DNA from: Escherichia phage vB_EcoM_WFbE185
DNA: 64,000 bases
Sequence record: MK373778.1
Reading direction: 5' to 3' (one strand)
Of this stretch, positions 2,518 to 12,279 are shown one piece after another; positions within the stretch are counted from its first letter, which is position 1, and every line of letters begins with the position of its first letter. Both the position numbers and the translations under genes were made by a program. The notes beneath the pieces were generated by a model. It was not told where the DNA came from. It ran no database searches and worked only from the letters and a program-made list of their open reading frames with translations.

Positions 2518-2990
2518 TCGGTAATAAAACGTTCAACTTCATTATTCTTGGCCTTTATCTTGTCTTTACGTTCCTGTAAACTACTTTTAACAAGATTAAT
2601 AATGATGCCTACAGTACCTCCACCAATAATACCACCAATAATACTTACGATAGTAGATGCTAATAAGATAGCAATAATATCAACAAAACCGAAAGAACTC
2701 ACCTTAGTACTAAAAAACCATACCGACGGTACAAATATAATCCATCCTGTTATCCATTGGCACTTATTGAAAAACTTTTCAAGCTCAGCTTGAGTTGTTC
2801 GTATTACTTCATCGATAGGTTGATATCCGTTAATGTATCTGTTCACGATAATACCTGCTGGCTGGTCGATTTTAAATTCTTGGCAAATACGTTTAACTAA
2901 GTAGGATGGACATCCTGTCCAATCTACTGAATAGTATGAAATACCTTCGTTGCCATCGTCTATATTAGACCAATATGTTTTGTTAATCAT
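2499..2990 (-). CDS. hypothetical membrane protein (two predicted TM helices), C-terminal FITECR
   Basis: ORF track 163 aa; hydrophobic stretches WIIFVPSVWFF and IIAILLASTIVSIIGGIIGGG. Confidence 0.65.
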   Translation of the reverse strand: MINKTYWSNIDDGNEGISYYSVDWTGCPSYLVKRICQEFKIDQPAGIIVNRYINGYQPIDEVIRTTQAELEKFFNKCQWITGWIIFVPSVWFFSTKVSSFGFVDIIAILLASTIVSIIGGIIGGGTVGIIINLVKSSLQERKDKIKAKNNEVERFITECRNLR

Positions 2991-3676
2991 TACCAGCCTT
3001 CCATAGGGAATTCCAGATAAACTTGAGCATTGACACGAATTTCATTGGTAATCTTTTTAACTCGGTCTGTATTACGAGATACACGTCCGAACCAACGCCA
3101 TCCGTTACTAATTGCACGAGAACCAGTGTGCCATGTTTGCCAATCAAACTGAAGAAGAGTACGATCTGGAGCTTCCCATTTCTCTAGTTCACCTTTTTCA
3201 ATTTTTTCGAGGACTTCTTTGTGCCACTGGCGATAGATAAGTTCGCCATCAGGAATCTGACTGAACTCTGCAGTTCCTGTTGCAAAATGAGTAGGACACA
3301 CGTCAGCGTTAACAAGACCAAGAATGTGTTCAGACAAATAGCGAGGATTGTCATAATCAGGTTGTCCTGCAGTAATAAAGTGTTGACCTACCGGAATATC
3401 CGGGCGTGGTACATCGTCATGGTGATAACCTGGGATAGCAGGGTACCAACCAGGCATCAGCATGTGGACTCGTGAATCAAATACAACCTGATCGGTGTTC
3501 CAATCATCTGGCAAGTTCATGATGAAGCTGCGAGTAATAGGACCGCCGTTATTATAAGCAAATTCTAAACTACAGTTGAAGAACATAGGCTCGTTTTTAA
3601 TCTGCTCGTTTTTAATCGCATGAGCAAAACCACCTACTGCACGAGCTTGACTATTAAACACTTTAGAACTATTCAT
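2990..3676 (-). CDS. hypothetical protein
   Basis: ORF track 228 aa; ATG preceded by GAGGA. Confidence 0.7.
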   Translation of the reverse strand: MNSSKVFNSQARAVGGFAHAIKNEQIKNEPMFFNCSLEFAYNNGGPITRSFIMNLPDDWNTDQVVFDSRVHMLMPGWYPAIPGYHHDDVPRPDIPVGQHFITAGQPDYDNPRYLSEHILGLVNADVCPTHFATGTAEFSQIPDGELIYRQWHKEVLEKIEKGELEKWEAPDRTLLQFDWQTWHTGSRAISNGWRWFGRVSRNTDRVKKITNEIRVNAQVYLEFPMEGW

Positions 3677-3677
3677 A

Positions 3678-3983
3678 TTATTTTCCTCGACATTCTTTAA
3701 TGAAATTTTCTAGATTGGTAGATTCAATAGCTTTTTTACGAGCTTCTGCGTGTTCTTCTTCAGACAATTTACGTTTATAATTGACCCAGACATTATGGTC
3801 TAAACCGGTCGTGGCATATAATATCAAAGCTCCGACGAATAATAAAAACGGTGATAAAAATATACAACCAGGAACACCATCCATACTGTAAGCCTTTTGT
3901 AATACTGCAACAGAAAGAGCTGCGTAAAAAAGTGATGCAAATATTGTAAAAAGACCAATTCGGTTGGTTTCGCCTAATTTCAT
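3678..3983 (-). CDS. hypothetical small membrane protein, C-terminal FIKECR
   Basis: ORF track 101 aa; two hydrophobic helices; own early promoter. Confidence 0.7.
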   Translation of the reverse strand: MKLGETNRIGLFTIFASLFYAALSVAVLQKAYSMDGVPGCIFLSPFLLFVGALILYATTGLDHNVWVNYKRKLSEEEHAEARKKAIESTNLENFIKECRGK

Positions 3984-4011
3984 AATATTCTCCTCATGTT
4001 TTAATAGGACT

Positions 4012-4041
4012 ACTATAACATAGCCCTATAATTGTGTAAAC
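4012..4041 (-). promoter_or_regulatory. early promoter cassette (-35 GTTTAC, -10 TATAGT inside ataggact/agtcctat palindrome)
   Basis: minus GTTTACacaattatagggctatgtTATAGT, leader with GAGGAG before ATG 3983. Confidence 0.55.
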
Positions 4042-4053
4042 AGTTTTGTGAAG

Positions 4054-5010
4054 TTATTTGAAAGGTTTTACCATATGGAAATTTTGTTTGAAACGTTTTA
4101 CGTAATCGTCATGTCCTAAGCTTTGGTACATACTTACAACTTTGCTGTAGTTTTCCCAGGCGTATTCACGGAACCAACCGGAGGTGATGCTTGTGCAGAC
4201 TTTTTCTAATGCCATCATGAAACTGGCTTCAGGGTTAATTTTAAAGTCATTAGGAATCTGAGAACGTTCTAATGCTAGTACACATGATTCTTCATATACA
4301 CCGGCCAATTTGACCATTTCTGGTAACGATTCGAACTTCTCGCGTGAGGTCATGACTTCAGAACCGTCTTTCATATAAAATGTATACGCTGGGCGGTCTG
4401 TTAGCGCAATGGCTTCGTGAATAGTGTCATGGTCATATGTATAGATGTCATCTTTAAAGAACGCACTTTTAGAAGTGTCAAGAACTGGGTGAGCATAGTT
4501 CAAGGTTTCTTTCTGGCGTTTCAGCATAATTTCAGTAAGTTCATCGTTCAGTGTAACACCTTTACCACGAAGATACTGAATATGGTTCATAGTCTTTAAA
4601 AAGAATGGATTATTTTTCTTGAAACGATGAGACATCTTAATTGCAAGGCACATCTCAGGAGTCGCCCAGTAAAACCCGTTCAAACGGTCTTTAGACAAAT
4701 TTTTCTTGGCGTATTTTAAAAGGTCATAAGAAGACGTGAAATCTTCAGGAGTGAGTTCACCTACTAATTCACGGACATTAGTGATTGCCGGAACAATATA
4801 TGCTTCAAAATGAGTTTCGCGTCCATTATGGAAGCATTTGAAAACTTGGACATCAGGGTTATCTTGGTGAACATATACACCCATCATTTGATTTTTGAAT
4901 GCATTCCAAGAACATTGGTCCGCAATAAAGTCCCAATCACTATTTTTGATAGCGCTAGAATCAATAAGACCGTGATAGTGAAGTGCACGAGAACCAATAA
5001 CTAACATCAT
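4054..5010 (-). CDS. hypothetical protein, possible nucleotidyltransferase fold
   Basis: ORF track 318 aa; N-terminal IGSRALHYHGL...SDWDFIAD resembles GS...DxD of Pol-beta-type NTases (weak). Confidence 0.7.
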   Translation of the reverse strand: MMLVIGSRALHYHGLIDSSAIKNSDWDFIADQCSWNAFKNQMMGVYVHQDNPDVQVFKCFHNGRETHFEAYIVPAITNVRELVGELTPEDFTSSYDLLKYAKKNLSKDRLNGFYWATPEMCLAIKMSHRFKKNNPFFLKTMNHIQYLRGKGVTLNDELTEIMLKRQKETLNYAHPVLDTSKSAFFKDDIYTYDHDTIHEAIALTDRPAYTFYMKDGSEVMTSREKFESLPEMVKLAGVYEESCVLALERSQIPNDFKINPEASFMMALEKVCTSITSGWFREYAWENYSKVVSMYQSLGHDDYVKRFKQNFHMVKPFK

Positions 5011-5038
5011 AATATTTTCCTCGGATTAATTCATTAAC

Positions 5039-5278
5039 TTAAATTTCACGACATGCGATATTATATTCATCCCAGAGGTCAACATGTGAAGCCTCTACCA
5101 ATGGAACGATTGTACCGTTTATGTCTTCATTATAAGGGCAAATTGTACAGTGCGCATCTTCGAATCGGATGCCTTTATGTTCAGATTTTTTATAACGCAT
5201 ATCGAATATCTTTGCAAACTTTTCACGACTAATAGTTTTAGCAACTACTTCAGTTCCGATACTTTCGTAATAAATCAT
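5039..5278 (-). CDS. hypothetical protein
   Basis: ORF track 5039..5290; second ATG (MIYYES) has GGAG SD, first does not. Confidence 0.6.
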   Translation of the reverse strand: MIYYESIGTEVVAKTISREKFAKIFDMRYKKSEHKGIRFEDAHCTICPYNEDINGTIVPLVEASHVDLWDEYNIACREI

Positions 5279-5306
5279 TGTGGACTCCATTTAATTTGAT
5301 AGGACT

Positions 5307-5336
5307 ACTATAACATAGCCCTATCTTGTTGTAAAC
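5307..5336 (-). promoter_or_regulatory. early promoter cassette (GTTTAC / TATAGT in palindrome)
   Basis: same gataggactactataacatagccctatc cassette as at 4000. Confidence 0.55.
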
Positions 5337-5340
5337 TGTT

Positions 5341-5538
5341 TTAGCAAGAATAACTAGATGATACCCAGCCTTGAACAGTAATACTATTGTGGGATAATGA
5401 GATCGCGTCCTGGAGATTCAGACCTGCGTTATCTTCAATCCATAATGTAACTTCTTCGCGTTCTTCTGTTGCAATCTGGAACAGGTTTTCCAGAGCAGCT
5501 ACTGCGGTACGCACAGCACAATCTAATTCACGAGACAT
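5341..5538 (-). CDS. hypothetical protein, paralog family member (C-terminal GWVSSSYSC)
   Basis: ORF track 65 aa. Confidence 0.6.
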   Translation of the reverse strand: MSRELDCAVRTAVAALENLFQIATEEREEVTLWIEDNAGLNLQDAISLSHNSITVQGWVSSSYSC

Positions 5539-5547
5539 ATTGTTTCC

Positions 5548-5820
5548 TTAACAAGTGTGAGAAGATGCGACCCAACCACCAGTTTCGAGGCTCAAGTTGT
5601 AGTCGTATTGGTAAACGTCAGCCCATTCAGCATAGCCGTTTTTTGTACAACGTTCAAGATCAGCTTTAAGATGTCCGGGTGAATGATAGGTTCCACCCAT
5701 ACCATAAGCTGGGTACAAGTTGAATGTTGTGTTTTGTTTATCGGCAATTTCTTTGGCAGCCTCAATAGCTGCATAGATTTTTGCTACAGCTTCAGCCAGT
5801 TCGGTTTGTTCTTTAGACAT
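5548..5820 (-). CDS. hypothetical protein, paralog family member (C-terminal GWVASSHTC)
   Basis: ORF track 90 aa. Confidence 0.65.
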   Translation of the reverse strand: MSKEQTELAEAVAKIYAAIEAAKEIADKQNTTFNLYPAYGMGGTYHSPGHLKADLERCTKNGYAEWADVYQYDYNLSLETGGWVASSHTC

Positions 5821-5829
5821 AATGATTCC

Positions 5830-6135
5830 TTAGCACAACGCAGAAGACGAAACCCAAGCACCTTCAGTAATAACGTAACCATTACCTTCACGCTTAACAT
5901 CGCCACCATTATTTTCAATTTCATCTTTCATCCACTGGGATACGATTTCACCCTTAGGATAATAAGTACGACCGCTACCATAATCACCTACAGAAAATGA
6001 TACGGCATATTGGTCTGCGATCTTTGTTGCTTCTTCTTCGATACGTTCAGCTTGATTCAGAAGTTTATAAATTGCATCTGAAGCGGATTTGGCATCATTA
6101 AACTCTGGTACTTTAATTTCAATAATCTTACTCAT
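5830..6135 (-). CDS. hypothetical protein, paralog family member (C-terminal AWVSSSALC)
   Basis: ORF track 101 aa. Confidence 0.65.
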   Translation of the reverse strand: MSKIIEIKVPEFNDAKSASDAIYKLLNQAERIEEEATKIADQYAVSFSVGDYGSGRTYYPKGEIVSQWMKDEIENNGGDVKREGNGYVITEGAWVSSSALC

Positions 6136-10288: not shown

Positions 10289-10365
<77 letters not shown>

Positions 10366-10371
10366 AATATA

Positions 10372-10445
10372 TGACCCAGACCAGATTCGAACTGGTAACC
10401 TTTCCCTTATGAGGGGACTGCTGCTAACCATTGAGCTACAGGGCC
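10372..10445 (-). tRNA. tRNA with anticodon CAU (Met or Ile2 type)
   Basis: T-arm ACCAG-TTCGAAT-CTGGT, acceptor GGCCCTG/CTGGGTC with one mismatch, anticodon loop CTCATAA; D and anticodon stems imperfect. Confidence 0.5.
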
Positions 10446-11918: not shown

Positions 11919-11948
11919 ACTATAACATAGTCCTATCATCATGTAAAC
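11919..11948 (-). promoter_or_regulatory. early promoter cassette (GTTTAC / TATAGT in palindrome)
   Basis: gataggactactataacatagtcctatc. Confidence 0.55.
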
Positions 11949-12249: not shown

Positions 12250-12279
12250 ACTATAACATAGTCCTATCGGCATGTAAAC
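12250..12279 (-). promoter_or_regulatory. early promoter cassette (GTTTAC / TATAGT in palindrome)
   Basis: gataggactactataacatagtcctatc. Confidence 0.55.

Follow-up and report, generated by a model that had tools for sequence, protein, structure and literature searches.

A predicted Pol β-type nucleotidyltransferase of RB69-like phages with a highly conserved helical domain and genetically linked small tail-tagged proteins

Organization of the locus

The stretch of DNA analysed here (the window) comprises 64,000 nucleotides (nt) of Escherichia phage vB_EcoM_WFbE185 (sequence record MK373778.1), a Mosigvirus, i.e. an RB69-like T4-type coliphage. The present analysis concerns a gene on the minus strand which encodes a predicted nucleotidyltransferase (NTase) of 318 amino acids (aa) and, further upstream on the same strand, a tandem pair of genes for small acidic proteins ending in a W-x-x-S-x-x-x-C motif, referred to below as tail proteins after this C-terminal tail (Table 1). 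The NTase starts with MMLVIGSRALHYHGLIDSSAIKNSDWDFIAD; its open reading frame (ORF) runs from an ATG to the stop codon at 4054-4056, and the plus-strand reading of 4054..5010 is full of stops. An earlier, sequence-only reading of this DNA had proposed a 318-aa ORF at 4054-5010 without giving a strand. The ORF is indeed present, on the minus strand, and the two peptides quoted from it are exact, with IGSRALHYHGL corresponding to residues 5-15 and SDWDFIAD to residues 24-31. The 4 kb around the gene are 97-98% identical to many phages of this type, and the Mosigvirus orthologs of the NTase are 96-99% identical. The RB69 ortholog, RB69ORF134c, is annotated as 'hypothetical protein'.

Table 1. Coordinates of the NTase gene, its domains and motifs, the neighbouring features in the window, and the short forms of the family with their partners.
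Feature	Position	Strand	Remarks
NTase coding sequence	4054..5010	minus	RB69ORF134c ortholog; Pfam DUF7277+DUF7275; PHROG 2141
Predicted N-terminal Pol β-type NTase core, residues 1-105	4696..5010	minus	β1-α1-β2-α2-β3-5 plus first helices; DUF7277 = residues 2-101
G6-S7 codons, hG[GS] motif	4990..4995	minus	55/55 homologs; distant representatives G 76/77, S 73/77
D25-W26-D27 codons, metal-binding DxD motif	4930..4938	minus	D25 and D27 55/55; distant representatives D27 77/77, D25 74/77
E69 codon, third carboxylate	4804..4806	minus	on β-strand 64-73; E 55/55, E or D 77/77
All-α domain DUF7275, residues 120-305	4096..4653	minus	about 50 invariant residues
Shine-Dalgarno sequence (ribosome-binding site)	5019..5022	minus	GAGG, 8 nt 5' of the NTase ATG
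83-aa ORF	5039..5290	minus	PHROG 3723 (function unknown); between promoter-like element and NTase gene
T4-early-type promoter-like element	5307..5336	minus	GTTTACA-N8-GGGCTATGTTATAGT; heads two-gene unit (83-aa ORF and NTase)
Promoter-like element, second copy	4012..4041	minus	directly after the NTase stop codon; marks start of next transcription unit
Promoter-like element, two further copies	11919-11948; 12250-12279	minus
Small acidic protein B, 90 aa	5548..5820	minus	RB69ORF137c ortholog; PHROG 899; ends ...GGWVASSHTC-stop
Small acidic protein A, 101 aa	5830..6135	minus	PHROG 899; ends ...GAWVSSSALC-stop; tandem paralog of protein B
Block matching RB69ORF132c-139c	~2990-6135; RB69 66895-70040	minus (window)
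Short form and partner, Gordonia phage Toniann (L005)			gp16/gp17
Short form and partner, KVP40 (L006)			KVP40.0037 (short form) and KVP40.0036 (partner)
Short form and partner, Streptomyces phage Wakanda (L007)			gp195/196
Short form and partner, Vibrio phage R16F (L016)			gp246/247
Short form and partner, Limnohabitans phage DC31 (L017)			gp89/90

The N-terminal nucleotidyltransferase core

The N-terminal domain contains the typical elements of the Pol β superfamily. Residues I5-G6-S7 form the hG[GS] motif, at the end of strand β1 and the start of helix α1, and are followed by the Dx[DE] pair D25 and D27 and by a third carboxylate, E69, on a later β-strand. The domain also shows the α/β fold of NTases; an unrelated fold had been named in the sequence-only reading as the outcome that would overturn its proposal. 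Conservation was assessed in 55 homologs at 46-75% identity and in 77 more distant cluster representatives. In the 55 homologs the sole invariant residues of the N-terminal domain are G6, S7, D25, D27 and E69, whereas the remainder of the domain has drifted to about 33% identity. This pattern of conservation bears out the GS...[DE]x[DE] signature of Pol β-type NTases to which the sequence-only reading had drawn attention. Its remark that the motif spacing is longer than usual was correct as well: S7 and D25 are separated by 17 residues (mostly 13-19 across the family), against 9-13 residues between G[GS] and Dx[DE] in canonical Pol β enzymes.

The motif was also evaluated against chance. Of shuffled versions of the NTase, 9.6% contain the loose pattern G[GS]x9-20Dx[DE], as do 9 of the 69 window ORFs of at least 100 aa. 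The strict pattern hG[GS]x9-20Dh[DE]h is found in 0.43% of the shuffles, and the NTase is the only ORF of the window that shows it within the first 45 residues. Taken alone, the GS...DxD pattern would thus constitute weak-to-moderate evidence; it is the conservation across homologs that places the motif beyond chance. Together with the fold and the third carboxylate, the prediction that the 318-aa protein is a Pol β-type NTase is supported.

The C-terminal domain

The C-terminal domain, DUF7275, is larger than the NTase core and much better conserved. Its invariant residues include K125, H128, K139, T140, R165, H194, D195, H198, E240, E241, E248, R249, K270 and R281. The arrangement H128...H194-D195-x-x-H198 led to an HD-domain phosphohydrolase being considered, but the HD fold with its H...HD...D metal site was not found and this assignment was rejected. 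Sequence searches of the Protein Data Bank (PDB), with the single sequence as well as with a profile, gave nothing but a spurious match of 27 residues to PsaB. The stretch concerned, NTase residues 277-303 (window 4102-4182, minus strand; SGWFREYAWENYSKVVSMYQSLGHDDY), matches a segment of the photosystem I protein PsaB with E=0.055 and also a cyanophage psaA/psaB PHROG, a resemblance which is probably due to chance or convergence.

Family, distribution and short forms

The NTase belongs, as a full member, to a phage family that has been catalogued but is functionally blank. It matches the Pfam families DUF7277 (96.7 bits, E=1.4e-27) and DUF7275 (264.9 bits, E=5.4e-79), both far above the gathering threshold of 27, and belongs over its full length to PHROG 2141 (E=5e-150). 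No characterisation of the family was found in the literature on the DUF, PHROG and RB69 ORF names and on phage NTase functions, and searches of the NTase with PADLOC and NCBIfam returned nothing meaningful. In metagenomic protein space the family is large, with 2212 matches when sequences are clustered at 90% and 1583 clusters when they are clustered at 50%. By contrast, when ~186,000 prokaryotic species were scanned with one genome each, 8 loci came up, all of them on contigs of metagenome-assembled genomes; the family is essentially confined to phages. Its hosts comprise T4-like, rV5-like, Otagovirus and Phapecoctavirus phages as well as phages of Acinetobacter, Aeromonas, Vibrio, Streptomyces and Gordonia.

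This distribution bears on one possible role, that of a sugar-1-phosphate NTase making nucleoside diphosphate (NDP)-arabinose as a donor for the DNA hypermodification found in RB69-type phages, arabinosyl-5-hydroxycytosine. Such a donor is required by RB69-like phages, and the proposed pathway includes a nucleotidyltransferase step (PMC13326640). That step, however, is assigned to RB69 gp52:53, which is MurU-like, has a different fold and is encoded elsewhere in the genome, in the gp45-55 cluster (PMC13326640), and the family is also found in many phages that do not belong to the arabinosylating groups, including Phapecoctavirus, Otagovirus, Gordonia and Streptomyces phages. The idea is effectively refuted and its probability is negligible.

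Homologs of ~250 aa from Gordonia, Streptomyces and Vibrio phages retain the hhGSxA...[KR]DxDhF start of the protein. In the short-form branch (~250-270 aa) GS and DxD are kept, but the third carboxylate is absent and four of the five members lack the β3-5 half of the NTase core. The motifs of the C-terminal domain differ in this branch, and the W-x-x-S-x-x-x-C tail family is absent from it. Instead, in five unrelated phages (Table 1), the short forms adjoin a different family of β-rich proteins of ~97-120 aa ending in ...EV.P.EKTITVYE, of which paralogs are also found nearby in the actinophages. Profile comparison of the two families of small partners with hhalign revealed no relationship. 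A split enzyme, in which the ~97-aa partner supplies the missing half of the core, was considered and rejected: profile similarity is lacking, and, contrary to this idea, the partner also adjoins one nearly full-length form and has paralogs nearby.

The short forms show that the C-terminal domain can persist without a complete NTase core. This observation, and the ease with which the loose motif arises by chance, would suit a non-enzymatic protein, structural or binding, on a degenerate NTase scaffold with GS...DxD as a chance or relic motif. In the long forms, however, G6, S7, D25, D27 and the acidic residue at position 69 are kept despite the drift of the N-terminal domain, which is the signature of selection on catalysis, and GS and DxD are still present even in the short forms. 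A non-enzyme is therefore very improbable.

Linkage with the tail proteins

The proteins of the tail family are 60-130 aa long, acidic (median isoelectric point (pI) 4.3) and soluble. They consist of an N-terminal helix, a YG.G.TYYP segment, a variable acidic middle part and the C-terminal tail. In two alignments the only invariant residues are the W, the S and the final C of W-x-x-S-x-x-x-C-stop. Neither a Pfam family nor a solved relative was found for these proteins, and no literature on them. Homology to Nif11, a leader of ribosomally synthesised and post-translationally modified peptides (RiPPs), was rejected as a chance result, with one weak match in 26 and none in an independent 65.

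To describe the genetic surroundings of the family, all ORFs within 6 kb of an NTase homolog were clustered for 80 viral contigs from 8 lineage groups. A single family was common to more than three of the eight groups, namely the ~90-aa tail protein, which was present in seven groups and 67 loci; in these 67 loci its gene is always upstream of the NTase homolog and on the same strand. With a profile hidden Markov model applied to 102 loci, one to four tandem copies of the tail gene were detected upstream of the NTase in 81 loci. The nearest copy is located at a median distance of 539 nt and a maximum of 1622 nt, and only two copies lie elsewhere; ten loci have overlapping genes or a gap of no more than 60 nt. 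A search with the motif alone plausibly adds five more loci. The reverse test, for which the most divergent tail-family members served as the starting point and contigs were found by exact-protein look-up, gave a corresponding result: a gene with both DUF7277 and DUF7275 lies 33-1300 nt downstream of the tail gene in all five informative contigs.

Two individual loci deserve mention. In a 3.7-kb contig (L105, 107-1240) a 377-aa protein, P0228, combines a tail protein with an NTase homolog. It was rejected as a Rosetta-stone fusion, because it arises from an in-frame TAG translated as Q by the gene caller, with the two genes 12 nt apart; the locus represents either a gene-calling artefact or TAG reassignment in a phage. 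The most compact arrangement is seen in a 136-kb metagenome contig from the European Nucleotide Archive (L101, 5001-6765), where the tail gene is followed, after a gap of 33 nt, by the NTase homolog and, after a further 9 nt, by Acb1, the phosphodiesterase (PF23474) directed against the cyclic-oligonucleotide-based anti-phage signalling system (CBASS). PhoH is encoded upstream, and 3 kb downstream there is a gene for an RNA ligase. The arrangement hints at an anti-defence island as the location of the module formed by tail protein and NTase.

Transcription and genomic surroundings

The promoter-like element upstream of the 83-aa ORF has a length of 30 nt and the form GTTTACA-N8-GG[G/A]CTATGTTATAGT; four near-identical copies are present in the window, where none would be expected by chance. 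The four elements appear to divide the accessory region into short early transcription units. As the NTase gene is located between two of them, it appears to be transcribed early, together with the 83-aa ORF. The latter was rejected as a conserved partner or antitoxin: the direct neighbours of the NTase homologs vary between phage lineages, and the proteins encoded at the equivalent position in other lineages are unrelated.

The block ORF132c-139c of RB69, in which four other small ORFs accompany the NTase and the tail proteins, is located between e.2 and e.3. For e.2 and e.3 the RB69 record notes similarity to T4 proteins whose accession numbers are consecutive; relative to T4, the block is therefore an accessory insertion. 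No Tequatrovirus is present among the matches listed for the NTase family or the tail-protein family.

Genes for tRNAs are located 5.3 kb from the NTase gene in the window, and 5 of the first 15 NTase loci had tRNA genes no more than 6 kb away. In a wider sample of 48 diverse loci, only three had a tRNA gene within 10 kb, and none was adjacent. Linkage between tRNA genes and the NTase was accordingly rejected, the proximity in T4-like enterobacterial phages reflecting conserved synteny. The window contains two tRNA genes (10289-10445, minus strand), of which tRNA-Arg(TCT) has an encoded 3' CCA, while tRNA-Met(CAT) is followed by TAT and would need post-transcriptional addition of CCA. In a close Mosigvirus contig (L018, 4381-4474) ARAGORN reports, beside tRNA-Met and tRNA-Arg, a 94-nt 'tRNA-Stop' with anticodon TTA, which is not called in the window.

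By analogy with the MenT toxins, the enzyme might modify RNA 3' ends, either crippling host tRNAs in a takeover of translation or repairing CCA ends damaged by defence systems, with the small proteins as inhibitors or regulators. A model for the latter is MenA1, a 68-aa antitoxin whose gene lies upstream of that for MenT1 and which blocks the active site of this toxin. The lack of tRNA linkage, the acidic-to-neutral pI and the failure of the tests for MenT membership (see below) speak against such an RNA NTase, which is considered the main alternative, though an unlikely one.

Proposed mode of action

The linkage between the NTase and tail genes is the only feature of the genetic context that is maintained across independent lineages, and the enzyme is therefore proposed to act on or with the tail proteins. 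The reading that is preferred here, with a probability of roughly 0.55, is that of an early-expressed, phage-specific two-domain NTase that acts on or with the W-x-x-S-x-x-x-C tail proteins. A direct relationship is favoured for three reasons. First, what is invariant in the small proteins is a short peptide at the terminus, of the type that would fit an enzyme cleft. Second, the most conserved part of the enzyme is its non-catalytic domain. Third, the partner changes where the C-terminal domain changes.

Judging from the fold and the invariant residues, G6 and S7 would position the triphosphate of a nucleoside triphosphate (NTP), while D25, D27 and E69 would hold two Mg2+ ions. A nucleoside monophosphate would then move from the NTP to an acceptor hydroxyl, with release of pyrophosphate. 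DUF7275 is expected to pack against the core and most likely provides the acceptor-binding site together with further NTP-binding side chains, for which K125, K139, R165, the H194-D195-x-x-H198 cluster and E240/E241/E248-R249 are candidates. The tail, docked into the conserved DUF7275 domain, would most likely be nucleotidylylated at its serine (or its terminal cysteine). Alternatively, the tail may plug the active site and thereby regulate the enzyme.

Several points weigh against this proposal. About 15-20% of the NTase loci are without a detectable tail protein, and the tail genes of the window are separated from its NTase gene by a promoter and two unrelated small ORFs. The NTase loci are phylogenetically non-independent, with eight groups at at least 60% identity, and the linkage could stem from the joint mobility of a cassette whose products do not interact directly. 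The substrates of the closest structural relatives are RNA 3' ends or small molecules rather than proteins, and the roles given above to single residues of the C-terminal domain are guesses.

A further-reaching and distinctly tentative idea, for which the odds are well below even, is that of a precursor-plus-modifier system, in which DUF7275 reads the tails of several diversifying proteins and the tail serine, the terminal cysteine or the carboxylate becomes nucleotidylylated. The modification could be stable and switch the tail proteins on, for instance as anti-defence or host-takeover effectors. It could also represent an activated intermediate, for instance for a Ser-Cys elimination or a cyclisation as in RiPP maturation.

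The NTase family is large and nearly confined to phages, many of which are under consideration for therapy. The combination of a predicted, catalytically intact Pol β NTase with a conserved domain and the pairing with tail proteins converts two unannotated families into one concrete, testable hypothesis. If the protein tail is the target, the reaction would constitute a phage post-translational modification of a new kind, and a precursor-plus-modifier system, if true, would give a function to two large phage protein families that have none assigned. If tRNA is the target, the MenT/AbiE toxins would have in the NTase their first counterpart on the phage side; if neither is, the NTase stays a routine uncharacterised accessory enzyme.

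Comparison with known nucleotidyltransferases

Within the Pol β superfamily, the protein can be described as the fusion of a MenT/ANT-like core with a helical domain that is novel and very highly conserved, coupled genetically to small tail-tagged proteins. Other Pol β NTases are known from jumbo and T4-like phages, in which RlaP (PF10127) and CCA-adding enzymes restore RNA 3' ends (PMC7824862; PMC12776372). Identity of the NTase with RlaP was rejected, and so was membership of the class II CCA-adding enzymes and poly(A) polymerases, as the PolyA_pol head domain with its RRD and EDxxR motifs was not found.

The closest structural relatives include the MenT/AbiEii (DUF1814) toxins, especially MenT1 (Rv0078A, PDB entry 8an4). 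Motifs I and II of these toxins are present in the NTase as generic NTase motifs, and K125 may be the counterpart of motif III; a DxxD-type motif IV was not identified in the NTase. In the MenT proteins a conserved Ser/Thr just before the DxD motif (T39 in MenT1, S78 in MenT3) is the site of regulatory phosphorylation. Two residues before the first Asp, the NTase family has N, C or P in the 55-homolog alignment and P, T, S or A in a further alignment (A4), so that the Ser/Thr is not conserved. None of 77 family members matched DUF1814 (AbiEii) at E<=10. The genetic setting differs as well: MenT toxins belong to bacterial toxin-antitoxin operons with an AbiEi/MenA antitoxin upstream, whereas the phage-only NTase is accompanied by no AbiEi/MenA homolog and gives no PADLOC match, and its small upstream proteins are unrelated to AbiEi/MenA and match no Pfam family. 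In addition, the NTase carries the extra ~190-aa DUF7275 domain, which has no counterpart in MenT3 or MenT4. Membership of the MenT/AbiEii family was rejected for lack of a DUF1814 match, of the conserved regulatory Ser/Thr and of a PADLOC match.

A second group of relatives is of minimal type and comprises ANT(2'')-Ia (4xje), LnuA (4wh5) and the uncharacterised proteins TM1012, JHP933 and 5uvd. These are bacterial or plasmid-encoded proteins of ~160-225 aa that act, where this is known, on small molecules. By analogy, the target of nucleotidylylation by the NTase might be an anti-phage small molecule, such as an aminoglycoside-like compound, which would thereby be inactivated, or a nucleotide immune signal, which would be modified or sequestered. 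The position of an NTase homolog next to Acb1 is consistent with such an acceptor, but this adjacency is seen in one locus only. Moreover, ANT and Lnu enzymes are single compact modules of ~160-180 aa without a DUF7275-like domain, whereas the phage-encoded NTase has 318 aa with a large extra conserved domain and matches neither a resistance NTase family nor PADLOC, and a small-molecule substrate leaves the conserved pairing with the tail proteins unexplained. This alternative is considered improbable.

For the preferred reading, a nucleotidyl transfer to or with the tail proteins, a precedent is provided by HEPN-MNT and GlnE/GlnD, enzymes of the Pol β fold that AMPylate or UMPylate a hydroxyl of a partner protein, which is often encoded next door. 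By analogy, these systems offer a mechanistic model for the proposed action of the NTase on the tail proteins encoded upstream of it.
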